NCBI GenBank assembly: GCA_001004665.1
Contig: LCRO01000006.1
Span: 444 to 64,443 of the forward strand
Direction: 5' to 3'
DNA: 64,000 bases
Source of the DNA: Candidatus Adlerbacteria bacterium GW2011_GWA1_54_10
GTDB lineage: Bacteria; Patescibacteriota; Minisyncoccia; Phycocordibacterales; SBAW01
Shown: positions 3,966 through 62,492 of the stretch, in pieces
How the letters are laid out: every line of letters begins with the position of its first letter
Position numbering within the stretch: position 1 is the stretch's first letter
The notes under the pieces: generated by a model
The model's database searches: none
Seen by the model: only the letters and a program-made list of their open reading frames with translations
Told to the model about the DNA's origin: nothing
Program-made: the position numbers and the translations under genes

Positions 3966-4901
3966 ATGGACTGGACTACGGCAAAAAGGATCTTCCGCGC
4001 CGGAATGCTGGATTTCTCCCGCAACGCGTTCGTCTCTGTTGCATCCATACTGGTAATGACGGTTACTCTTTTCGTGGTCGGAGTGACTATCTTCGCCGGC
4101 GTTATTTTGAACGCTACGCTCGACGAGCTTAGGGACAAGGCCGACATCAACGTGTACTTCACCACCATGGCGCCGGAGGAGCGAATGCTCGAGCTTAAAA
4201 GCTCGCTCGAGGCTCTGCCCGAGGTGGAGTCCGTGGAGTACATCTCGCGCGACGAGGCGCTAGCGGCCTTCCGCGAGCGGCACAAGGACGACCAGCTTAC
4301 CCTGCAGGCGCTCGAGGAGCTCGAAGACAATCCTCTCTCCGCAGTGCTTAATGTCAGGGCGCGGGACATTTCGCAATACGAGGCCATTGCCGCGTTCCTG
4401 AACAAGGAACAGGAGGCCCTAACAGCGGGCGAGGCGCCCATAATAGACAAAATAAATTTTTATAACGAACAGCACAGACAGGCCCTCGCGCGGCTCGAGG
4501 TCATTACCGACTCCGCGCAGCGGCTCGGGTTTGTCGTCATCGCAATACTCATACTCACTTCGATAGCGATCTCCTTTAATACCCTGCGGCTTGCCATATA
4601 TTCCTCGCGGGACGAGATACAGGTAATGCGGCTCGTAGGCGCTGGGCAGTTCTATATCAGAGCGCCCTTTATGGTCGAGGGCACGCTTTACGGCCTTATT
4701 TCAGGCATAATAACCCTGCTCCTTTTCTACCCTCTCACGTGGTGGCTCGGAGGCGCGACGCAGGGTTTCTTTGGCGGCGTCAACATATTTGGCTATTATG
4801 TTTCTAATTTTCCGCTATTTTTTCTGATAATCGCCGGCACGGGGATGCTGCTTGGCGCCACGGCGAGTTTTCTTGCGGTCCGGCGGTATCTTAAAATCTA
4901 G
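3966..4901 (+). CDS. ftsX: cell division permease-like protein FtsX
   Basis: N-terminal TM segment, large periplasmic loop and 3 C-terminal TM segments. Adjacent to ftsE. Confidence 0.85.
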
Positions 4902-4944
4902 GAGAAAAGTCCGGCATGCGGTATAAAGGAACGTAAGGAAGAAA

Positions 4945-6579
4945 ATGGAGGAGCCCAAGTATATTTTTGTAGTCGGAGGAGTGATGTCGGGCATCGGCAA
5001 GGGAGTGGCCTCCTCATCGATAGGGCGCATCCTCAAGTCCAAAGGCTTTAAAGTCACGGCGATAAAAATAGACCCCTATATAAACGTGGACGCCGGCACG
5101 ATGAATCCGACCGAGCACGGCGAAGTGTTCGTCCTTGACGACGGGTACGAATGCGACCAGGACATGGGCAATTACGAGCGCTTTCTGGACGAGAGTTTAC
5201 CCAGCATCAACTACATGACCACCGGCCGTGTGTACCTTTCCGTCATCGAGCGCGAGCGCAACTTGGAGTACAAAGGCAAGAATGTCGAGGTAGTGCCCGA
5301 CATACCGCTTGAGGTCCTGCGCCGCATAGATGAGGCGCGGTGCGCGGCCGGCGCGGAGATAACGATAGTGGAGATAGGCGGTACGATAGGCGAGTACCAG
5401 AACATCATCTTCCTCGAGGCCGCGCGCATGCTACGACAAAAACACCCGCGCGACGTCGCGGTGGTCATGGTCTCTTATGTGCCAATTCCGCGCAACATCG
5501 GCGAGATGAAGACAAAGCCAACGCAATACGCCGCGCGCACGCTAAACTCCGTCGGCCTTCAGGCCGACATAATTTTGGCGCGCGCGGAAGTGCCGCTCGA
5601 CCAAAAGCGCAAGGAGAAGATCGCCGTCTTCTGCAACACCCTGTCCGAGCACGTCATCTCGGCTCCCGATGTGGATAGCATATACGACGTGCCGCTTAAC
5701 TTCGAGAAGGACGGCATGGGTAATATGCTCTGCGACGTGCTTTCCCTGCCGCGGCGTTCGTCCGACCTTTCCGCGTGGGAGAAATTCGTGGCGAAGAGCA
5801 AGAATGGCGGAAAGCAGGCAAACATCGCCGTCGTGGGGAAGTACTTCGACTCGGGTGAGTTCGTACTGTCCGACTCGTATATTTCGGTTTTGGAGGCTCT
5901 GCGCCACGCGGCATACAGCCAGGACCTAAAAATTTCCATCACTTATTTCGATTCCAAAGCCTTCGAGTCGGGCAAGACGCCGCTCGAAGAGCTTAAAAAA
6001 TATTCCGGCGTTCTTGTACCCGGCGGCTTCGGCGAGACTGGCATAGAAGGGAAGCTCAAGGCAATAGAGTACGTTCGGGAAAACAAAATACCGTATCTCG
6101 GCCTTTGCTACGGAATGCAGCTTGCGGTAATAGAGTACGCCCGCAATGTGGCGGGTCTTGCTGGTGCGAACACGACCGAGGTTGACAAAGATACGCCGCA
6201 TCCGGTCATTGCCATAATGGAATCGCAGAAAGAAAACGTGGAAAAGTCGCGCCTCGGCGGCACGATGCGCCTCGGCGCGTACCCGTGTTCTCTTGCGGAC
6301 GGAACCGTTGTGGCGCAGGCATACGATAAAAAAGAGATTAGAGAGCGGCACCGCCACCGTTATGAGGTAAATCCGAAATATATCGAGCAGTTAGAGAGTG
6401 CGGGGCTCAACTTTAGTGGCCGCTCGCCGGACGGCGTGCTTATGGAGATAGCCGAATTGCCTAAGGAAAAACATCCATTCTTCCTCGGAACGCAGTTCCA
6501 CCCCGAGTTCCTCTCCCGCCCGCTATCGCCGCATCCGCTTTTTGTCGCCTTCCTAAAAGCCGCCGGCGAGCGCGCATAA
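4945..6579 (+). CDS. pyrG: CTP synthase
   Basis: N-terminal synthetase domain (VTGGVMSGIGKG-like) and C-terminal glutamine amidotransferase (GLCYGMQ, HPEF). Confidence 0.95.
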   Translation: MEEPKYIFVVGGVMSGIGKGVASSSIGRILKSKGFKVTAIKIDPYINVDAGTMNPTEHGEVFVLDDGYECDQDMGNYERFLDESLPSINYMTTGRVYLSVIERERNLEYKGKNVEVVPDIPLEVLRRIDEARCAAGAEITIVEIGGTIGEYQNIIFLEAARMLRQKHPRDVAVVMVSYVPIPRNIGEMKTKPTQYAARTLNSVGLQADIILARAEVPLDQKRKEKIAVFCNTLSEHVISAPDVDSIYDVPLNFEKDGMGNMLCDVLSLPRRSSDLSAWEKFVAKSKNGGKQANIAVVGKYFDSGEFVLSDSYISVLEALRHAAYSQDLKISITYFDSKAFESGKTPLEELKKYSGVLVPGGFGETGIEGKLKAIEYVRENKIPYLGLCYGMQLAVIEYARNVAGLAGANTTEVDKDTPHPVIAIMESQKENVEKSRLGGTMRLGAYPCSLADGTVVAQAYDKKEIRERHRHRYEVNPKYIEQLESAGLNFSGRSPDGVLMEIAELPKEKHPFFLGTQFHPEFLSRPLSPHPLFVAFLKAAGERA

Positions 6580-42942: not shown

Positions 42943-43014
42943 GCCCCCGTAGTTCAATAGATAGAACAGCCCCGTCCTAAGGGGTAGATGTGGGTGCAAT
43001 TCCTGCCGGGGGCG
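42943..43014 (+). tRNA. tRNA-Arg (CCU)
   Basis: Manual fold: acceptor GCCCCCG/CGGGGGC (7 bp), D stem GTTC/GAAC, anticodon stem GCCCC/GGGGT with loop GUCCUAA, T stem GTGGG/CCTGC (two G-U pairs) with unusual T-loop TGCAATT. CCA not encoded. Confidence 0.65.
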
Positions 43015-43038
43015 CAGATAATACAGAGTACACAATCT

Positions 43039-44844
43039 ATGGATGGCCGGAAACAAGAAGCTGTACTTACTTCAAGGAAGCTTGTCGCGGACGGCGCGTA
43101 TGAGGTTTCTTTCGAGCTTTCCGAGTCTATCCAATTTGCGCCGGGACAATATGCCTGGGTAATACTGCCGGAGCTTGCGCATCCCGACCGCCGCGGGAAT
43201 CGCCGGTCCTTCTCTATCATTTCAACGCCTTCCGACGCCAAAAACATTCGCTTTCTTTTCCGTGTTCATTCTCCAAACAGCGGGTATAAAAAGACTCTTC
43301 TTGAGCTTCCGCTCGGCTCGCGCGCGCAAATAGATGCGCCGTTCGGATTACACACTCTGCCCAATGCCACCACAATCATAATGGTGGCCGGAGGCGTGGG
43401 GATTTCCTCTTTCTTAAGCATTATCCGCGACATGGAGGAGCGCGGTGCATGGAGACAACTGACGCTTATTTTCGGCAACTCGTCGCAAAAATCGGCCCCA
43501 TTCCTCGATGAGCTTAGGATGTATGCAAAAAACCGTCCGATTTTTGAACTGCGCGAGGTAGAGGGTTCGATATCGAAAGAACATCTTCCCGTCGGCACGA
43601 CGCCCAAAGACACTCGATGGCTTTTGGCCGGTCCAAAGGAAATGACCAACAAAGTCGCCGCCGTGCTTACGGCCGCGGATATTGACCCTGGCCGCGTGTT
43701 GTGCGAAGAATTCCCTCCGCCGGCTCTCGACAAAGGACTGCCGGTTATCGACGAACAGACTATGTCGGATTCCAATTTTTATAAACTGGCTGTCGAGAAC
43801 GCCTCTAATCACGTAATTTTTACCGATATCGAAGGCACCATAGTGTATTGCAACAAGGCGGCCGAGCACATAACCGGATACACGTTTGAGGAAATGCGCG
43901 GCTCGACGCCGCGCCTGTGGGGAGGTCTTATGGATAAAAATTTTTACGAGCATTTATGGCGGATAATAAAGCGCGAACGCAAGCCGTACTCCGGCAAGAT
44001 AAAGAACAGGAGAAAGAACGGCGAAGTATATACGGTGATCGCACGAATTTCGCCTGTCTTGGGCAGAGACGGCGATCTTATAGGTTTCCTCGGCACCGAA
44101 GAGGACATAACCGACCTGGAGAAAATAGACCAGGCGAAGACCGAGTTTGTCTCGCTTGCGTCGCATCAATTGCGCTCGCCGCTCTCCGTAATCAACTGGT
44201 ACACCGAAATGCTCCTTGGCGAGGGAGTCGGAGGGCTGAACGAGAAGCAAAAGAGGTATTTATCGGAAGTCAAAAATGGGAGCCGGCGAATGACCGAACT
44301 CGTAAAGGATCTGCTTAACGTGTCGCGCCTTGAGCTTGGGACTCTTGTCATAGAACCCCGGCCCGTAAGCCTGCCTGCGCTTATTGCGGAAGCGGTGCAG
44401 GAGCAAGCGCCGGATTTGCATAAGAAAAACATAAAGCTTAACGAATCGTACGCGCCGCAGGTTTCTACATTTCCCGCGGACCCCAAGTTTCTGAAGATAA
44501 TAGTGCAAAACTTGCTGTCCAATGCGGTGAAGTACACCCAGGATGGAGGAGAAGTCAGCGTGCGTACCGAGCTTGCGGACGGGAAGATGGTTCTTTCGGT
44601 TTCAGATACGGGGTATGGCATACCGGAAGATCAACAGCGGAAAATATTCACTAAGCTTTTCCGCGCGCGCAACGTCGTCAAAAAAGACACGGAGGGCTCC
44701 GGCATAGGACTGTATCTGGTGAAGTCCATAGTAGAGCGCTCCGGCGGCTCTATATGGTTTACTTCCAAAGAAGGTGCGGGGACGACGTTTTTTGTGGCGT
44801 TTCCTGCGGAGGGGATGCGCGCTCAGCGGGATGATATAATGTAA
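43039..44844 (+). CDS. sensor histidine kinase with N-terminal FNR-like FAD/NAD(P)-binding oxidoreductase domain and PAS domain
   Basis: First ~235 aa resemble the ferredoxin-reductase type FAD-binding fold: RRSFSIIS (RxYS-like), MVAGGVGISSF (NAD-binding glycine loop), C-terminal ...EEF. Then PAS (IFTDIEGTIVYCNKAAEHITGY), HisKA H-box (ASHQLRSPL) and HATPase_c (G1 DTGYGIP, G2 GSGIGL). The ORF-track start at 42988 lies inside tRNA-Arg, so the start is set to the Met at 43039. Confidence 0.75.
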   Translation: MDGRKQEAVLTSRKLVADGAYEVSFELSESIQFAPGQYAWVILPELAHPDRRGNRRSFSIISTPSDAKNIRFLFRVHSPNSGYKKTLLELPLGSRAQIDAPFGLHTLPNATTIIMVAGGVGISSFLSIIRDMEERGAWRQLTLIFGNSSQKSAPFLDELRMYAKNRPIFELREVEGSISKEHLPVGTTPKDTRWLLAGPKEMTNKVAAVLTAADIDPGRVLCEEFPPPALDKGLPVIDEQTMSDSNFYKLAVENASNHVIFTDIEGTIVYCNKAAEHITGYTFEEMRGSTPRLWGGLMDKNFYEHLWRIIKRERKPYSGKIKNRRKNGEVYTVIARISPVLGRDGDLIGFLGTEEDITDLEKIDQAKTEFVSLASHQLRSPLSVINWYTEMLLGEGVGGLNEKQKRYLSEVKNGSRRMTELVKDLLNVSRLELGTLVIEPRPVSLPALIAEAVQEQAPDLHKKNIKLNESYAPQVSTFPADPKFLKIIVQNLLSNAVKYTQDGGEVSVRTELADGKMVLSVSDTGYGIPEDQQRKIFTKLFRARNVVKKDTEGSGIGLYLVKSIVERSGGSIWFTSKEGAGTTFFVAFPAEGMRAQRDDIM

Positions 44845-44855
44845 ACCGTTAAACG

Positions 44856-45239
44856 ATGGAATCCGACAAAAATAAAGTCCTGCTTATTGCCGAAGACGAG
44901 CCGTCTCTGCGCTATATATTGCGCGATAAATTGTCCAATATCGGATTTACGGTTTTTGAGGCGGCCGACGGGGAAGAGGGACTTGCGGTGGCCATGAAGG
45001 AACACCCGGACCTTATTTTGCTCGACCTTGTAATGCCGAAGATGGACGGCATCTCGATGCTGAAGAAATTGCGCGAGAGTGATTGGGGCAAGTCGGTCAA
45101 AGTTCTTGTGCTGACGAACCTGGACGAAACGGGTAAAATTTCCGAGGCTGTCGAGCACGGCGCGGAAGAATATTTGATAAAAAGCGACTGGTCCATAGAG
45201 TCAATAGTGGCAAAAATCCGGGAGAAATTCGGCATGTAA
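44856..45239 (+). CDS. single-domain response regulator (CheY-like receiver)
   Basis: DD pair (EDE), phospho-acceptor D in LILLDLVMPKMDG, T/K residues conserved. 127 aa with no output domain. Confidence 0.85.
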   Translation: MESDKNKVLLIAEDEPSLRYILRDKLSNIGFTVFEAADGEEGLAVAMKEHPDLILLDLVMPKMDGISMLKKLRESDWGKSVKVLVLTNLDETGKISEAVEHGAEEYLIKSDWSIESIVAKIREKFGM

Positions 45240-45244
45240 AGCAA

Positions 45245-45496
45245 TTGCGCATGGACCCAGAGATAGAAGAGCTTAAAGAGCTTGCGCGCGCGCAGAGCAG
45301 GATCGCGGAAGACACTAACCGCATCGTGCACAAACTCCATCGCGGCGTCTGGTGGGGAAGGATATGGACATTGCTTTGGTGGGCGGCGGTGCTCGGTATA
45401 GGCGGAGCCACATATTACTACTATCTCGCGCCATATGTGGACCAGATACAGGCACTTTACGGCAACGCCCGCGGAATTTTTGAGAATTTTAGGTAA
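45245..45496 (+). CDS. hypothetical small membrane protein
   Basis: 83 aa: coiled N-terminal half and one Trp-rich TM helix. Confidence 0.45.
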   Translation: MRMDPEIEELKELARAQSRIAEDTNRIVHKLHRGVWWGRIWTLLWWAAVLGIGGATYYYYLAPYVDQIQALYGNARGIFENFR

Positions 45497-47033
45497 CTGC
45501 CGCGTAGTGATATACTATAAAAAACCGCTTGGGTAGCTCAGTTGGTAGAGCATCTCCCTGAAGAGGAGGGGGTCGCCGGTTCGAGCCCGGCCCCAAGCAC
45601 CACGTTGGAAATGTCAAAGATTCAGATGTCGCCTCGCTTCGCTCGGCGACCAAATCGTATGGATTTTTCGGGGCAAAAAGAAATTCCCGATTCCATGTTG
45701 GCAATTCGGAAAGATTATCTGTCTGAAGGAGATTTGCGGCTTGATTCAAGGATTTTACGAACTCACGAGCCGGTTCGAGCCAAGACAACCCTTTTGTCTC
45801 AAAATCGGTGATTTTCTCGGAAAGCGCGACTTTTTGGAAAATGAGAATATCTTTTTTGGCAGCGTATTCTTTTTGTGTTAGCGTGTCGTCAAGATAGACA
45901 TCAAGTAGCTTTTGAATTCTTGTCTCTACTTGCGATAACTGCTCTTTGAGATTTACCACTTCACTTTGCGCCTGTTCTTTTGCTTGATTTTCTTCCGTAT
46001 CCAAAGCCACCAAAACTTTCTCGGTGTCTTGGCTCGACAAAGAAACTTTTTGAAGGAAGGTTTTGATTTGGGAAACTAACTGATTTTCACCGAGATACTT
46101 TTCTTGGCATACGCCTCGCTTTTTGGTACAGCGATAGTAAGTGTAAATACCGCCATTTCCCTTTGCATATTGAGCAGTAATTGAGCAACCACACGAGGCG
46201 CATTTCATAAGGCCAAGAAAAGCAAAACTATGTTTTCTATCGGGACGTACTTTCCCACGCTTCGTCATAACTTCCTGACATTTATCAAAAAGTTTCTTTG
46301 ATATTAACGGCTCGTGCATTCCCTCAAAAATTTCCCCTTTGTATCTCATCAGTCCAATGTAGAAAGGATTTTGTAGAATATGCTGAACATTGCTCAAGGA
46401 TATTTTGTTATCAGCATTAGTGAGCAGTTTCTTCTTCTCACACCAATTTGCAAGAATGTTGAGAGAATATGCTCCGGTAGCGTACATTTCAAATATCTTT
46501 CTTACTTTAGGAGCTTTTTCTTTATCAACATCGATACCTCTCGTTTTGGCGTTATTTAGATAGCCAACCGGAGCCCAACTTGGCCATACCCCATTTCGTA
46601 TTTTTTGCCGTAGTCCACGCTTCACATTCTCTCGCAAATTGTCCACGAAGTATTTACTTTGCCCAAAAGCAATGTTCAGCATGAATAATCCTTGCGGTGT
46701 AGGTTCAAACCAGAAACAGGGAAATTTGAGAGCACGAATCAAGCCGCGATCCACAAAATGGATAATCTTTCCGCCGTCTACCGAATTTCTTGCAAGACGA
46801 TCCGGATGCCAAGAAACAATGCCATCTGCTTTTCCTTCCTCAATCAATGACAACATTTCTGCGAATTTCATTCGTCCGGGTTCTTTTGCGGTTTTGGCCT
46901 CTTGGAAAGAGGCGACAATTTCAAGTTTTTCTTTTGCGGCAAATTCTTTGAGCTCAACAAGTTGAGCTTCAATCGATAGAACTTGTCGGTCATCTTCTTC
47001 GGTGCTTTTGCGAGCGTATATTATGTATTTCAT
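45489..47033 (-). CDS. large serine recombinase (resolvase/invertase catalytic domain + recombinase domain + zinc ribbon)
   Basis: N-terminus MKYIIYARKSTEEDDRQVLSIEAQ carries the catalytic Ser motif. Central recombinase domain, Cys cluster CASCGC...YYRC, coiled-coil. The ORF continues with no stop through the left inverted repeat and antisense through tRNA-Phe to 45489, so the true C-terminus is uncertain. Confidence 0.8.
   Translation of the reverse strand: MKYIIYARKSTEEDDRQVLSIEAQLVELKEFAAKEKLEIVASFQEAKTAKEPGRMKFAEMLSLIEEGKADGIVSWHPDRLARNSVDGGKIIHFVDRGLIRALKFPCFWFEPTPQGLFMLNIAFGQSKYFVDNLRENVKRGLRQKIRNGVWPSWAPVGYLNNAKTRGIDVDKEKAPKVRKIFEMYATGAYSLNILANWCEKKKLLTNADNKISLSNVQHILQNPFYIGLMRYKGEIFEGMHEPLISKKLFDKCQEVMTKRGKVRPDRKHSFAFLGLMKCASCGCSITAQYAKGNGGIYTYYRCTKKRGVCQEKYLGENQLVSQIKTFLQKVSLSSQDTEKVLVALDTEENQAKEQAQSEVVNLKEQLSQVETRIQKLLDVYLDDTLTQKEYAAKKDILIFQKVALSEKITDFETKGLSWLEPAREFVKSLNQAANLLQTDNLSELPTWNREFLFAPKNPYDLVAERSEATSESLTFPTWCLGPGSNRRPPPLQGDALPTELPKRFFIVYHYAAVT
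45527..45602 (+). tRNA. tRNA-Phe (GAA), CCA encoded
   Basis: Manual fold: GCTTGGG/CCCAAGC acceptor, D-loop AGCTCAGTTGGTAGAGC, anticodon loop CUGAAGA, T-loop GGTTCGAGCC. Preceded by a TATACT -10 element. Confidence 0.9.
45619..45693. repeat. left terminal inverted repeat, 75 bp perfect
   Basis: ATTCAGATGTCGCCTCGCTTCGCTCGGCGACCAAATCGTATGGATTTTTCGGGGCAAAAAGAAATTCCCGATTCC. Confidence 0.9.
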
Positions 47034-47079
47034 AGTTTTTGTTAGTTAATGATTGAAATTTTTCTTTTCTGCTTCTAAC

Positions 47080-47154
47080 GGAATCGGGAATTTCTTTTTG
47101 CCCCGAAAAATCCATACGATTTGGTCGCCGAGCGAAGCGAGGCGACATCTGAAT
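47080..47154. repeat. right terminal inverted repeat, 75 bp perfect
   Basis: Exact reverse complement of 45619-45693. Confidence 0.9.
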
Positions 47155-47356
47155 GCCGCACGAATCAAAACCGCAAAAGAACTTGTTAAAAACATCGGCT
47201 CGAACCATATTTTGTAGAAGCAGAAAAGAAAAATTTTAATCATTTGATTTTTGTTCTCAAGAAGCGGCTTTTAGCCGCTTCTTGACTTTATATATTATTC
47301 TGGTATCATGTGTCATAGTGTTCGGGGAATGAACTGACCTTTGAAAGGAGAATGCG

Positions 47357-47833
47357 ATGGAATACGTGTTTTGGTGGTTTCTTCTCGCCATTCCGTGCTT
47401 TTTTGTTGCTTACTGCAATGGCGCAGACATGAACTTCAGGTTGAACTCTCCCAGCTATGAGGAAGGCTTCTGGAAGTTCTACAAGAACTTCTTCAGTGAT
47501 GGTTTTCGCCTCCTTGTCCACGACTACTTCGGGGTTTACTGTCCATGGAGTTGGGAAAGGGCAAAGAGGCATCGCCTCGCAGATATGCGCACGTATCTCG
47601 GGGCAGACGGACGTTGTCATGATCGCCTTGGCCACATAACCGCGGGGGATTGCGACAATCCCGAAAAACAGGAGGCAATCGCTCGCCACGCCTACATCAG
47701 CCGAACGAAGCAATGGACTGGCGGCGCGTTCAACTTTCTCATCGCACCAATACCAGGCTCGTTCATCATCATCGGCACCGTGATAGCAGGCGTTGTCGAA
47801 CTGGGACGACACCTTATCAACAAGGGTGCGTAA
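47357..47833 (+). CDS. hypothetical membrane protein (158 aa) in an AT-rich segment
   Basis: Strong Shine-Dalgarno AAAGGAG 7 nt upstream, which is unusual in this window. N- and C-terminal TM helices; Cys/His/Trp-rich middle. No family recognised. Confidence 0.5.
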   Translation: MEYVFWWFLLAIPCFFVAYCNGADMNFRLNSPSYEEGFWKFYKNFFSDGFRLLVHDYFGVYCPWSWERAKRHRLADMRTYLGADGRCHDRLGHITAGDCDNPEKQEAIARHAYISRTKQWTGGAFNFLIAPIPGSFIIIGTVIAGVVELGRHLINKGA

Positions 47834-47916
47834 CGCTCACGGTGAGTTTCTCATCAAGGCGCACGACCTACGGGTACGGCGCTTTTCTTTTTTATAAATC
47901 AAAGAACAAAGAATTT

Positions 47917-55638: not shown

Positions 55639-55842
55639 AGTGATTTTTTTATTTTTTGTAAATGCTGCCCGTCCGAAGCCTTGGCAAAGGAAGGCCGCAT
55701 TACTGTACACCGCCGGTTTGCAACAATGCAAATAGCGGGTAGTCCACAGGATAAGGCGCGCGATAATGCCTCCTAAAATCTTTTCTTTAAGCCGTTTTTA
55801 TCTTCTTCCATAAAACTCTTGACTCCTTGTCCTTTTGTTCTG

Positions 55843-58498: not shown

Positions 58499-58652
58499 CT
58501 CGCGGAGCTCTCGCGCGGGGACGGGAAGCGGGCGGTTTCCAGACAGCTATCGAAGTCGCGCACGGGCGCAAAACCGTAAAACCTCGCGACATCGGAAACA
58601 ACCGACATGAATGATGGGACGCTTTTTGGTCGCACCTGCGCGCGCGGAGCCG

Positions 58653-59238: not shown

Positions 59239-59712
59239 AATATCGGAAAAGAAGTTCTGGAGGCGCTAAAGGAGAAGCTGTCGCGGGATACAAAAATAGC
59301 GGAGCTCAATGTCTATATGAATAACTCGGGGGCGGCGATACGCAAAGCGGTCCCGTCAAAGAAGGCCGCGGAAAGGCTGATAGTCCTGCATGACGACCTC
59401 GACCTGCCGCTCGGCTCCGTAAAACTGTCCTTCGGCTCGGGCTCTGGAGGGCACAGGGGAGTGGAGTCTGTAATAAAAGCGCTCAAAACGCGGGATTTTG
59501 TCCGCGTCCGCATCGGCATCTCGCCCGCCACGCCCAAAGGCAAAGCAAGGCGCCCGGATCCGAAAAAAATAACGGATTTTGTTTTAGGAAAATTTAGGAC
59601 TCCTGAACTTGCGAAACTAAAAAAATCGAAAAAAACGGTTTTGGAGGCCTTGGAAATTTTGATGACAAAAGGCCTAAGCGCCGCGATGAATGAGATTAAT
59701 TCAAAACGCTGA
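59179..59712 (+). CDS. pth: peptidyl-tRNA hydrolase
   Basis: MKWIIVGLGNPG ... TRHNIG N-terminal signature. Start at the internal Met 59179. Confidence 0.9.
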   Translation: MKWIIVGLGNPGKEYFGTRHNIGKEVLEALKEKLSRDTKIAELNVYMNNSGAAIRKAVPSKKAAERLIVLHDDLDLPLGSVKLSFGSGSGGHRGVESVIKALKTRDFVRVRIGISPATPKGKARRPDPKKITDFVLGKFRTPELAKLKKSKKTVLEALEILMTKGLSAAMNEINSKR

Positions 59713-59801
59713 AAATCAAGGGTTTGACATTTAAAAACTTCAGAGTAGATTCAGATTCAGAAGTTCGTCTAATTTTTTCTTGCAACGACTAGGGGGACCC
59801 A

Positions 59802-60581
59802 ATGCGCGTTCTTATGATAGAGCCGGACTCGGCGACGTCTCAATCTTTGGAATTGATGTTGAAGTCAGAGGACTTCAACGTCTACACGACCGGCCTCGGC
59901 GAGGAGGGGGTCGATCTCGCCAAGCTCTACGACTACGACATCATCTTACTCGATCTCAACTTGCCCGATATGTCGGGCTTCGAGGTGCTACGCTCGTTGC
60001 GCGTCTCGAAGGTCAAGACCGGGGTCCTGATCCTCTCCGGGCTCGCCGGTGTGGAGGACAAGGTCAAGGGTCTTGGCTTCGGCGCCGACGACTACATGAC
60101 CAAGCCGTTCCACAAGGACGAGCTGGTGGCGCGCATACACGCCATCGTGCGCCGATGCAACGGCCATGCCCAGTCGGTCATCCAGACCGGCGACCTCGTC
60201 GTCAATCTCGGCCAGAGGACCATCGAGGTGAAGGGAAAGAGAGTGCATCTCACCGGCAAGGAGTACCAGATAATGGAACTCCTCACGCTACGCAAGGGCA
60301 CGACAATCACCAAAGAGATGTTCCTCAACCACCTCTACGGCGGCATGGACGAGCCGGAGCTGAAGATCATCGACGTGTTCATCTGCAAGTTGCGCAAGAA
60401 ACTGCGCAAAGCCAATGAAACCGACCCGATTGGGACTATCTGGGGCCGCGGCTACGTTCTGCGTGACCCCGACAGGTCCGAGGCGGACCAGATAGTCGCA
60501 CCACCGCCGGTGCCAAACGGCGGAGTGTTCGAGGAGTTCGACAGGCCTGATTCTCTGGTGCGCAGGACACGTACAGTTTAA
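59802..60581 (+). CDS. ctrA: OmpR-family response regulator with very high similarity to alphaproteobacterial cell-cycle regulator CtrA
   Basis: Receiver ([30 protein letters not shown]) plus winged-helix output (HLTGKEYQ ... [31 protein letters not shown] ... [10 protein letters not shown]). These blocks match CtrA as I recall it, over most of the length. Codon usage is strongly GC3-biased compared with neighbouring genes. Confidence 0.8.
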
Positions 60582-60708
60582 CGTTTCAATATGTTACGAC
60601 CGCCGCCGGGAGCAATTCCGGCGGTCTTTTTTGTTGTATAGGACGGTTTTGAATGTTATAGTGACAGAAGATGTTCGCTAACAGTCCATCAAACCCGAGG
60701 GGGATTCC

Positions 60709-61461
60709 ATGGATCAGAAAGTGCAAACCACCGAACTCCATTTCGGCGAGCGGAACGAGATCTCGTTCTTCCCGGAGAAGTGCGTCGTCATCTGCGGAGA
60801 CTCGACGGTGGCGCTCACTTCGCAGGAAAGCCTCTTCCTGCAGACAATCGCGGAGAATCGCGGGCGTATAACGAAAAAAGAGGAGATACTTCGCGTCTTG
60901 CATAAGCATAAGAGGCTCTCGAAAAAGAAGAAGCAATACGACGTGCTTGCCCACCGGACCCGCAAAAAACTCGGCAGGCAAGGCCAGCGTACACTTGTCA
61001 CGCATAAAGGTGGATACTCGCTGAGGATCCCCGAGGAAGAGTACTCGAGTAGCGTCCGTTTCGGGGACTTCCGGTACTTCCCAACCGTCGCGCTTGTGAA
61101 ATGCGCAGATAGGGAGCGCCGTCTTGCACCTGAGCGCAATGCGCTCCTGCGGGAGCTCGCAGAGTGCAAGGGAGAATTCGTCTCCAAGCTCGCACTCTTC
61201 CGCATAACCCTCGCCATGGGGCGAGGCCGGGCGAGGTCGAAGATGGTTGATGTGGTTTTGTGCCATCTGCGAGAGATACTCGACGATCTCTCGCACGACG
61301 GCGGCGATCACATCCACACCAAATGGGGGAGTTCCTACGGACTTTTCGAGGAGCGCCAACCGCGTCTGCATGCGGCCAAAAACCCGCGCGGTCCGCACAC
61401 CGGAATCCTCGAGCATATGGGGGCATTGCGAACCTTCATAATGTCCGAGGCGCGAGCGTAA
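60709..61461 (+). CDS. orphan OmpR-type winged-helix (trans_reg_C-like) DNA-binding protein with unknown C-terminal domain
   Basis: Residues ~10-105 show the trans_reg_C pattern (V.L...ESLFLQTIAENRGRITKKEEIL ... RTRKKL ... GGYSLRIP) with no receiver domain. 145-aa C-terminal region unrecognised. GC3-rich like ctrA. Confidence 0.55.
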   Translation: MDQKVQTTELHFGERNEISFFPEKCVVICGDSTVALTSQESLFLQTIAENRGRITKKEEILRVLHKHKRLSKKKKQYDVLAHRTRKKLGRQGQRTLVTHKGGYSLRIPEEEYSSSVRFGDFRYFPTVALVKCADRERRLAPERNALLRELAECKGEFVSKLALFRITLAMGRGRARSKMVDVVLCHLREILDDLSHDGGDHIHTKWGSSYGLFEERQPRLHAAKNPRGPHTGILEHMGALRTFIMSEARA

Positions 61462-62492
61462 ATTTCGGTCTGGCGCATTAGCGTAGAACCGCCGGTCGTA
61501 ATGACCGGCGGTTTTTTTGTTTTTGACATGCCCTCCTCTATCGAGGCAAGCGCGCCGTGCTTGTTGAATTTTATTACCACGCCCTCGACCTTGTCTCCTT
61601 TATTGTACTTGCCCGCCGCCGTAAGCCACGGATTTTCCTTAAGCTGTTTTACCGAGAGCGATATCTTGCCTTCTTTAATGTCTATTATCTTTACTTTTGC
61701 CCTGTCGCCCACCTTAAAGAAGTGCCTCGGGTCGTCCACGAGTCCCCAATCTATCTCGGAAATATGGACGAGACCCTCTAGGCCTTCCTCAAGCTTGACG
61801 AAGACGCCGAAGTCCACCATGCCGGTTACCTCGCCCTCTACGGTGTCGCCAACTGAATAGTTGGCTATAAGCTCGCGCTTTTCTTTGTCGTCCTGCCCCT
61901 TCTCGCTGAAAATAAGCTTGCCTTCCTTGGGGGTCGCGCCGATCATCGTTACCACGAATTTCTCTCCGACAAGCTTACGCAGTTCCTCGAGAATTTTGTC
62001 CTTGTCACCGTCTGGTATGCGTGGATAGTGCTCGGGCTTCAATTGGCTCGCCGGGAGGAACCCCTGCAGGCCCTGCCATTCGAGTATCAGCCCGCCCTTG
62101 TTAGCCTCTTTGACCGCAAGCTCGAACTGCGCCTTTGTCTTGACCGCCTCCTCCGCCTCGGCCCACAGCAAGGCCTGTCGCGCCTCCTTGAGCGAAAGCT
62201 CGATATAGCCCTCCTTGTCCGTGCCTATTACCTTGGCGGCGACGACGTCTCCGATGTTGGTGCGCTTGATAACTTCGCGCGCGTTCAGGTACTCACGCCC
62301 GTAAATAACGCCGGTGCCCCATGGCGGCAAGTCTATATAGAGTTTTGCGCGGTCGAGCGCGAGGACCTTGCCCTCGACTATATCGCCCTCTTTGGGCGGC
62401 TCTTGCGCCTGCGCGGCAAGGGCCTGCATTACCGACTCGGGTACGTCGGCTACATTCAAAGACTCCTCTTTTTCGAGTTCAGCAGTTTGCAT
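61335..62492 (-). CDS. rpsA: 30S ribosomal protein S1 (short, ~4 S1 domains); 3' end uncertain
   Basis: Repeated S1 domains (GDIVEGKV ... , GDTVEGEVTGMVDFGVFVKL, GDKVEGVVIKF...). The ORF runs with no stop through the terminator hairpin at 61488-61520 and 126 nt into the convergent gene, so the real stop is probably near 61470-61520. Confidence 0.8.
   Translation of the reverse strand: MQTAELEKEESLNVADVPESVMQALAAQAQEPPKEGDIVEGKVLALDRAKLYIDLPPWGTGVIYGREYLNAREVIKRTNIGDVVAAKVIGTDKEGYIELSLKEARQALLWAEAEEAVKTKAQFELAVKEANKGGLILEWQGLQGFLPASQLKPEHYPRIPDGDKDKILEELRKLVGEKFVVTMIGATPKEGKLIFSEKGQDDKEKRELIANYSVGDTVEGEVTGMVDFGVFVKLEEGLEGLVHISEIDWGLVDDPRHFFKVGDRAKVKIIDIKEGKISLSVKQLKENPWLTAAGKYNKGDKVEGVVIKFNKHGALASIEEGMSKTKKPPVITTGGSTLMRQTEIYARASDIMKVRNAPICSRIPVCGPRGFLAACRRGWRSSKSP
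61488..61520 (+). terminator. rho-independent terminator
   Basis: ACCGCCGGTC-GTAAT-GACCGGCGGT hairpin followed by TTTTTTTGTTTTT. Confidence 0.8.

Follow-up and report, generated by a model that had tools for sequence, protein, structure and literature searches.

What is CtrA doing in a bacterium of the Candidate Phyla Radiation (CPR)? This response regulator is treated as a hallmark of the Alphaproteobacteria, where it exerts essential control over replication and division under a phosphorelay, in one of the best-studied bacterial circuits. The window, the whole 64-kb stretch of contig LCRO01000006.1 from Candidatus Adlerbacteria bacterium GW2011_GWA1_54_10 analyzed here, encodes on its plus strand, between pth and rpsA, a CtrA protein of 259 residues (positions 59802..60581) and, just downstream, a second protein of 250 residues (60709..61461), referred to below as the product of gene 2. 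A preliminary description of the window proposed that the two genes form a regulatory module recently acquired from an alphaproteobacterium. Our explanation differs in both timing and extent. We assign a probability of about 0.72 to the whole of it: a ctrA xenolog of alphaproteobacterial origin, long resident in this lineage, acting as an orphan regulator outside the canonical phosphorelay, and accompanied by a receiver-less tandem of winged helices.

The protein at 59802-60581 is CtrA itself and not a generic member of the OmpR family, as the preliminary description had recognized; every peptide block that it quoted is found in the translation. On the NCBIfam equivalog model for CtrA, NF045991, the protein reaches 382 bits, above the cut-off of 350, and the match takes in all model positions from 1 to 224; the next-best NCBIfam family, PmrA, scores 166 bits. 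Pfam finds the expected receiver (Response_reg, residues 3-112, positions 59808-60137) and OmpR-type winged helix (Trans_reg_C, residues 145-220, positions 60234-60461). The receiver matches the Brucella CtrA structure 4qpj with E=5e-62, identity to PhoB is 28%, and the phylogenetic placement described below agrees. Two GenBank entries, KKW35593.1 and KKW37732.1, are identical to the window protein and are labelled generically. Full-text literature searches found no paper on CtrA in CPR, Patescibacteria, Parcubacteria or Adlerbacteria, and we regard the finding as CtrA in a new phylum, probably uncoupled from its relay and with receiver-less derivatives.

An alphaproteobacterial gene on a CPR contig could be produced by an assembly chimera or by binning contamination, and two features are of the kind such an artifact would leave: both genes are taxonomically incongruent with their neighbors, and ctrA is an outlier in G+C content at third codon positions (GC3). 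The contig itself is from CPR, as had been surmised. The precomputed annotation of other window genes (FtsZ, FtsA, TsaD, RNase J, sortase, N-methyl pilins and pilins of type IV secretion system type) fits a CPR genome, and GenBank assigns the identical entries KKW35593.1 and KKW35594.1, the product of the neighboring gene among them, to Candidatus Adlerbacteria, which NCBI taxonomy places within the Parcubacteria/Patescibacteria group. Another window gene is also encoded on contig LCRR01000004.1 of assembly GCA_001004755.1. The exact window CtrA protein is encoded on 22 contigs. By megablast, ten of these, drawn from separate samples and projects and built by different assemblers (IDBA scaffolds, MEGAHIT k127 and k141, JGI assemblies), match the window at 100% over the pth/ctrA, ctrA/gene 2 and gene 2/rpsA joins, and diverged relatives show the same gene arrangement. 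Because these joins recur base for base in at least ten independent assemblies, a chimeric junction at either border, against which the preliminary description had cautioned, is excluded, and artifact can be dismissed as an explanation for practical purposes.

To place the gene among its relatives, one genome per GTDB species was scanned and the best 80 of at least 600 matching stretches were kept; judged by record titles, these 80 ctrA loci are essentially all alphaproteobacterial. Among the matches listed, the window protein is 81-84% identical over residues 1-224 to CtrA of the Hyphomicrobiales (Pseudolabrys, Xanthobacteraceae, Bosea, Methylobacterium, Bradyrhizobium, Rhizobium and Brucella were compared, and Pseudolabrys is the best), 72-76% identical to that of Caulobacterales, and 68-72% identical to that of Rhodobacterales and Sphingomonadales. 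The Hyphomicrobiales values exceed the 70% identity that had been anticipated for an alphaproteobacterial CtrA. A neighbor-joining tree was built from 79 alphaproteobacterial CtrA sequences and three CPR copies, those of the window and of two related loci, L091 and L095, with PhoB as outgroup. In it the CPR copies form a single clade inside alphaproteobacterial CtrA, sister to Pseudolabrys; the monophyly of the CPR copies has a bootstrap value of 72%, and their nesting apart from Rhodobacterales and Sphingomonadales one of 60%. Since the CPR sequences are nested within the alphaproteobacterial tree, the transfer ran from Alphaproteobacteria to CPR, with a Hyphomicrobiales-like donor. The gene entered the ancestor of an Adlerbacteria subgroup, or spread early among its members, and purifying selection has maintained it since; it is thus long established and domesticated, and no recent island.

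The age of the transfer separates this explanation from one in which both ctrA and gene 2 were acquired in one event, not long before sampling, from an alphaproteobacterial neighbor or host. A recent event would account for the high protein identity to Hyphomicrobiales CtrA and for a ctrA GC3 of 0.81, the highest of the 51 open reading frames (ORFs) in the window (+2.2 SD) and inside the range of alphaproteobacterial ctrA genes, 0.74-0.95. Protein identity is a poor guide to the date here, since CtrA evolves very slowly. Synonymous divergence (dS) between the window ctrA and every sampled alphaproteobacterial ctrA is 0.7-1.3, near saturation and in the range seen between alphaproteobacterial families, and nucleotide identity is only 75-79%. 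Three diverged Adlerbacteria lineages, represented by the window, L091 and L095, share the order Pth-CtrA-(gene 2)-RpsA-LactB3-GyrA and thus the insertion site. The L091 protein is 78% identical to that of the window, in the order pth-ctrA-rpsA-LactB3 with no gene 2. L095 (62.5% GC) has the order FtsA-YbeY-S21-HisS-like-signal peptidase-Pth-(272-residue ORF)-CtrA-tandem winged helix-RpsA-LactB3-GyrA. Its CtrA is 75% identical to that of the window (dS 0.91, dN/dS 0.21), and the identities of its flanking proteins are 82% for GyrA, 81% for RpsA, 71% for FtsA, 60% for Pth and 44% for the HisS-like protein, a pattern consistent with vertical descent and purifying selection since the common ancestor.

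Codon usage leads to the same conclusion once the relatives are included. The GC3 of ctrA in L095, 0.87, is indistinguishable from that of its neighbors (0.76-0.91), and the high GC3 of the window ctrA does not date the transfer. The preliminary description had reported GC3-rich codons in both genes; this holds for ctrA, while gene 2, at 0.71 (+0.9 SD), is ordinary for the window. Gene 2 moreover has no alphaproteobacterial counterpart in either a word-indexed or an exhaustive HMMER search and is missing from L091. Near-saturated dS, an insertion site shared by three lineages, and blended codon usage in L095 together speak against a recent transfer, and the proposal of a two-gene module transferred as a unit is not supported either. 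We consider a late, joint arrival very improbable.

The site itself is variable. A metagenome scan with RpsA returned 40 related loci (L099-L138), ordered GyrA-LactB3-RpsA-Pth-signal peptidase-...-FtsA. In about eleven the site is empty, with pth 20-52 nt from rpsA. Other loci carry 360-1,380 nt of unrelated cargo between the two genes, including an IS200-like transposase (L104), a zeta-toxin-like ATPase (L113), a pilin (L123) and a GNAT acetyltransferase (L121). Since relatives show either an empty site or other cargo, the pth-rpsA spacer is an insertion hotspot. It lies about 2.8 kb from the division genes ftsA and ftsZ. Two of the surveyed loci, L118 and L110, have receiver-less winged-helix genes in this same spacer. 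The L118 protein, 110 residues long and ending ...NGKNYISTVYGYGYVLRDP, has CtrA as its best OmpR-family model (54 vs 30 bits), as does the L110 fragment, which contains ...VDIFICHLRKRL...IETVPGKGY (39 vs 33 bits).

A hotspot could hold ctrA merely as a decaying passenger, a neutral remnant without function in the CPR cell and on its way to loss. The patchy occurrence among relatives, with many empty sites, the truncated, receiver-less and strongly diverged versions in L118 and L110, and the diverged DNA-binding domain of L091, recognition helix included, would all fit, as would dN/dS values of 0.12-0.43 compared with 0.06-0.15 among Alphaproteobacteria. Against decay, three lineages keep an unbroken reading frame although dS has reached about 0.9, dN/dS for CPR ctrA is 0.12-0.21, indicating purifying selection, and the window and L095 proteins retain the recognition helix without change. 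The window gene also has signals of its own. A sigma-70-like promoter, TTGACA-16-TAGATT (59724..59751, plus strand; 10 of 12 positions agree, a consensus match only), is identical in L091, and a ribosome-binding site, AGGGGGA, lies at 59791-59797 on the same strand. Downstream of the stop codon, a scan found an intrinsic terminator with a 10-bp GC-rich stem and a T run (60602..60635, plus strand; -19.1 kcal/mol, z = -2.9), and equivalent hairpins occur 3' of ctrA in L091 and L095. We give the passenger explanation a slim chance, a little better than that of a recent joint arrival, and prefer a domesticated ctrA. As gene 2 is followed by its own intrinsic terminator (14-bp stem then T run, 61485..61525, plus strand, by the same kind of scan) and ctrA has a promoter-like site, a ribosome-binding site and a terminator, the two genes are probably transcribed separately.

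Two peculiarities of the related loci deserve mention. Positions 1-1176 of L091, compared with 59446-60631 of the window, form a mosaic. Over the 88 residues of Pth and the ctrA promoter the two do not differ at all. Within ctrA, dS is 0.13 in the receiver half; in the DNA-binding half dS is 0.59 and dN 0.22, with a changed recognition helix, GFSVIRSFIFHLRKKF. The mosaic may reflect recombination between lineages or an assembly of mixed strains. In L095, the extra 272-residue ORF between pth and ctrA (4216-5034) has no Pfam match and no counterpart in the window.

The receiver domains of the CPR copies suggest how such a protein could function apart from its native circuit. The phosphorylation pocket of CtrA consists of Glu7, Asp8, Asp51, Ser/Thr79 and Lys101, and in the window protein it is incomplete: Glu7, Asp9, Asp51, Ser79 and Lys101 are kept, and position 8 is proline. 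This position aligns with Asp10 of PhoB and with Asp13 of CheY, a direct Mg2+ ligand needed for phosphorylation. All 79 alphaproteobacterial CtrA sequences have Asp here; the window and L091 have Pro, and L095 has Gly. Position 51, likewise Asp in all 79, is Glu in L095. This same substitution, D51E, is an experimental phosphomimetic allele of CtrA, as D51A is a non-phosphorylatable one (PMC6363796).

No gene for a hybrid kinase, an Hpt-like (histidine phosphotransfer) or ChpT-like protein, or a CckA-like kinase was found in the window or the 6 kb beyond it, about 70 kb in all, which is the reach of this analysis into the genome. Adjacent to ctrA and gene 2 are pth and rpsA, and CckA, ChpT-like and DivK-like genes are absent there, as the preliminary description had stated. 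A histidine kinase does lie about 15 kb from ctrA. Its gene (42988-44844, plus strand) encodes PAS (residues 264-376), HisKA and HATPase_c domains by Pfam, and is followed immediately by a gene for a 127-residue single-domain receiver, also on the plus strand and ending at 45239, so that the pair spans 42988-45239. The N-terminal part of the kinase shows a weak match to FAD_binding_6, below the Pfam cut-off, and one to NAD_binding_1. This kinase was considered as a CckA homolog and rejected: it has no receiver domain, its best families are PnpS, PhoR and WalK, and it is paired with a receiver of its own.

The loss of Asp8 from all CPR copies, the D51E change in L095, and the lack of a partner nearby suggest that the window CtrA is probably an orphan, atypical regulator whose activity is independent of phosphorylation by the canonical phosphorelay. 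Such activity would be constitutive, or set by the abundance of the protein or by partner proteins. The competing possibility is a canonical CtrA controlled by phosphorylation, with CckA and ChpT encoded elsewhere or the PAS kinase acting on Asp51, and with the change of Asp8 to Pro tolerated. The retained pocket residues, the presence in the window of a HisKA/HATPase kinase and a stand-alone receiver, and the limited portion of the genome in view all leave room for it. The invariance of position 8 in the 79 alphaproteobacterial sequences and its replacement in all three CPR copies speak against it, as do the sister lineage with Glu in place of the acceptor itself and the character of the window kinase, which is not hybrid and adjoins its own receiver. 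We judge phosphorylated control unlikely, and accord it a larger share than any other alternative because the window copy keeps Asp51.

If the input side of the protein has changed, its DNA-binding side has been preserved in two of the three copies. The recognition helix and wing (WGRGYVLR) of the window and L095 proteins are identical to those of alphaproteobacterial CtrA, and diverged in L091. Because these elements are unchanged, the predicted target is that of CtrA, for which the consensus box is TTAA-N7-TTAA(C) (PMC7200025), and the window protein would still recognize such sites. The preliminary description had suggested a search for TTAA-N7-TTAA. In the window, the exact motif occurs 0 times against an expectation of 0.93, and one-mismatch versions occur 15 times against an expectation of 21, in a test of low power, since about 0.9 sites are expected by chance and alphaproteobacterial loci themselves have only 0.9 per 64 kb. 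The half-site TTAACCAT was not enriched in the same underpowered search. The only one-mismatch site near division genes, TTAAGCCGTTTTTAT at 55787-55801, falls in the ftsA-ftsZ spacer upstream of ftsZ; taken alone it is not statistically meaningful.

At the C-terminus the CPR proteins differ among themselves. The short C-terminus of small non-polar residues in Caulobacter CtrA is a degradation signal for ClpXP. The window protein lacks such an ending. Alignment shows instead a lineage-specific tail of about 27 extra residues (residues ~233-259, positions 60498-60578, plus strand), shared with L091, in which the motif VP(N/D)GG(V/M)FEEF occurs. The window protein ends ...RRTRTV, and L095 ends ...ERVPA, like the Hyphomicrobiales. 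The pattern of the tail motif (G, hydrophobic, three variable positions, hydrophobic) resembles the tails of the receiver-less family described below. An origin of the tail as a translated relic of the donor's terminator was tried and rejected. The hairpin in the tail DNA is not significantly stable in the window (z = -1.4) and is absent from L091 (z = +0.6) despite the conserved peptide motif, nor could any homology be aligned in the regions 3' of 79 alphaproteobacterial ctrA genes. Separately, many database proteins called CtrA with lengths of 280-420 residues (matches P0002-P0024, P0059 and P0088) are artifacts: some are alphaproteobacterial ctrA genes read past the stop codon into the 3' flank, and others, P0002-P0006, come from short contigs with internally duplicated segments. 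Such lengths should therefore not be read as natural C-terminal extensions. Several read-through alphaproteobacterial entries (280-330 residues) show an in-frame NGGVF like that of the window tail.

Gene 2 had been described as encoding one OmpR-type winged helix fused to a 145-residue domain of unknown kind. The winged helix is confirmed, and the remaining region proves to be a second one. With the Pfam model Trans_reg_C (PF00486), whose cut-off is 26.2 bits, the protein scores 55 bits over two stretches, residues 33-104 (60805-61020) and ~133-210 (61105-61338), both on the plus strand. An AlphaFold2 model (mean pLDDT, the predicted local distance difference test, of 72; pTM, the predicted template-modeling (TM) score, of 0.48) has two repeats of a sheet, three helices and a hairpin, one spanning residues 10-105 and the other 116-212; the tail beyond them is disordered. 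Foldseek matches in the PDB are exclusively DNA-binding domains of the OmpR/PhoB type, each covering one half of the model; they include those of YycF, PhoB and VicR, with E from 4e-6 to 1e-3 and target TM of about 0.8. The protein is thus a receiver-less tandem of two OmpR-type winged helices.

Homologs of gene 2 are few. The word-indexed search returned only the query itself, and an exhaustive HMMER search of 1.84 billion proteins gave 22 matches, four of them below E=1e-10. They include a 39-residue fragment identical to the query, the tandem forms P0137 and P0138, and proteins of about 140-170 residues that match the second winged helix and the tail only. P0137 (254 residues, 32% identical to the window protein) is the product of the gene 3' of ctrA in L095, and since this homolog follows ctrA there, the pairing of the two genes is conserved. 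For eight of ten receiver-less proteins (the 110-residue protein of L118, the L110 fragment, P0137, P0140, P0141, P0142, P0144 and P0147), CtrA is the best OmpR-family model, by 2-24 bits overall and by 10-24 bits in the six clearest cases. A Cys in the recognition helix (ICKLR) is invariant across the aligned receiver-less proteins. P0141 (141 residues, JGI 3300045391; 49.5 bits for CtrA, 26.9 bits for the next model) is encoded between ftsZ and ftsA, on the strand opposite to both, a position that suggests a link between the receiver-less family and division genes. Judging from these comparisons, gene 2 and the small family around it seem somewhat more apt to have arisen inside CPR, by duplication of CtrA DNA-binding domains, than in any other way. 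The product of gene 2 would act as a covalent pseudo-dimer on paired half-sites, needing no phosphorylation signal, alongside CtrA or in competition with it.

Three short losses from the source record affect genes around this pair. The window lacks 60, 68 and 176 nt, at 58531, 58955/58956 and 61528/61529, respectively; identical pieces are present in up to ten other assemblies that cover these points, and the blocks flanking all three match other assemblies at 100%. They look like collapsed scaffold gaps. A HisS-like ORF, a signal peptidase ORF and the 3' end of rpsA are corrupted by them. By megablast of ten independent contigs and by gene calls, the 176 nt missing between 61528 and 61529 carry the true 3' end of rpsA, so that the window's version of the rpsA ORF (61335-62492, minus strand) ends in a false C-terminus and overlaps gene 2 in appearance only.

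Several observations weigh against the explanation that we favor. Support for the tree is moderate only, 60-72%, and each CPR copy shares 83-84% identity with Pseudolabrys CtrA, more than the 77% that it shares with the other CPR copy. Behind the patchy distribution there may be several losses or horizontal movement among Adlerbacteria, alternatives between which the poorly resolved RpsA tree does not choose. About 90 kb of Adlerbacteria sequence, L001, L095, L091 and L118 included, contains no TTAA-N7-TTAA site, although here too the power is low. The window CtrA keeps Asp51, Ser79 and Lys101 and may be phosphorylated by some kinase, a PAS histidine kinase is present at 42988-44844, and CckA or ChpT may be encoded outside the 64 kb plus 6 kb that were read. 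The window gene 2 scores 27.3 bits against the CtrA model and 28-35 bits against four or five others, so that its descent from CtrA is argued through its relatives. All functional statements about CtrA and gene 2 are drawn from sequence alone.

The kinase region has features of its own. The kinase ORF as listed overlaps a tRNA-Arg gene (42943-43015), so that the true start must lie further downstream, and the kinase and receiver genes together lie between this tRNA and tRNA-Phe (45527-45602). The kinase protein is encoded on only six short contigs, compared with 14-22 for other window genes, which suggests that the region varies among strains. Next to it, 45489-47900 is a segment of low GC content (41-44%) with a large serine recombinase on the minus strand (GC3 0.39; domains Resolvase, Recombinase and Zn_ribbon_recom), whose ORF runs at its 3' end over tRNA-Phe. 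On contig L094 the recombinase has the opposite orientation relative to the kinase. The segment is probably a mobile element integrated at the tRNA.

To our knowledge, almost nothing is known of gene regulation and division control in CPR bacteria. CtrA has been passed on stably in a CPR lineage whose genome is very small, and a pocket residue that is otherwise invariant has been lost there; the DNA-binding output of the circuit could, it appears, be transplanted and kept without its input. The protein offers a concrete handle on gene regulation, and possibly on division control, in these bacteria. The receiver-less single and tandem derivatives illustrate a path from a two-component regulator to one-component DNA-binding proteins. 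More tentatively, as an idea that we hold to be possible but would not bet on, a CPR subgroup may have domesticated CtrA as a kinase-independent regulator of division or surface genes and elaborated it into a family of receiver-less CtrA DNA-binding domains, both single-domain proteins of 110-172 residues and tandems. If true, CPR bacteria would have their first identifiable transcription circuit of cell-cycle type, and nature would have run its own experiment in detaching CtrA from the phosphorelay.

The proteins can be compared with several known systems. With the CtrA of Caulobacter, Brucella, Sinorhizobium and Hyphomonas, which stands at the end of the CckA-ChpT relay, the window protein shares the receiver and OmpR-type winged helix, the recognition helix, the wing, and Asp51, Ser79 and Lys101. 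It differs in its CPR host, in the replacement of Asp8 by Pro (by Gly in L095, which also has D51E), and in its tail of about 27 residues, where alphaproteobacterial proteins are short and end ...IPA or ...NAA. It also differs in its setting, with no CckA, ChpT, DivK or SciP gene near it and no CtrA boxes detected in the available sequence.

Helicobacter HP1043, Chlamydia ChxR and actinobacterial GlnR are atypical, phosphorylation-independent regulators of the OmpR family, whose acidic pocket is incomplete or whose acceptor position holds a Glu. Such atypical orphan regulators are often found in small genomes with few kinases. Pro8 in the window, Gly8 and Glu51 in L095, and the absence of a cognate kinase gene alongside are features of the same kind, and by analogy the window CtrA would work as these proteins do. 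Unlike them, it is CtrA by descent, and it shows no specific sequence relationship to any of them. The two halves of the gene 2 product each have the four-stranded sheet, three helices and hairpin of stand-alone OmpR/PhoB DNA-binding domains (PF00486); it differs from those in joining two domains in one chain with no receiver, and its sequence is a near-orphan. Finally, L095 carries naturally the change engineered as CtrA(D51E) in Caulobacter and Rhodobacter genetics (PMC6363796). There it is combined with a change of Asp8 to Gly, and the window copy keeps Asp51.

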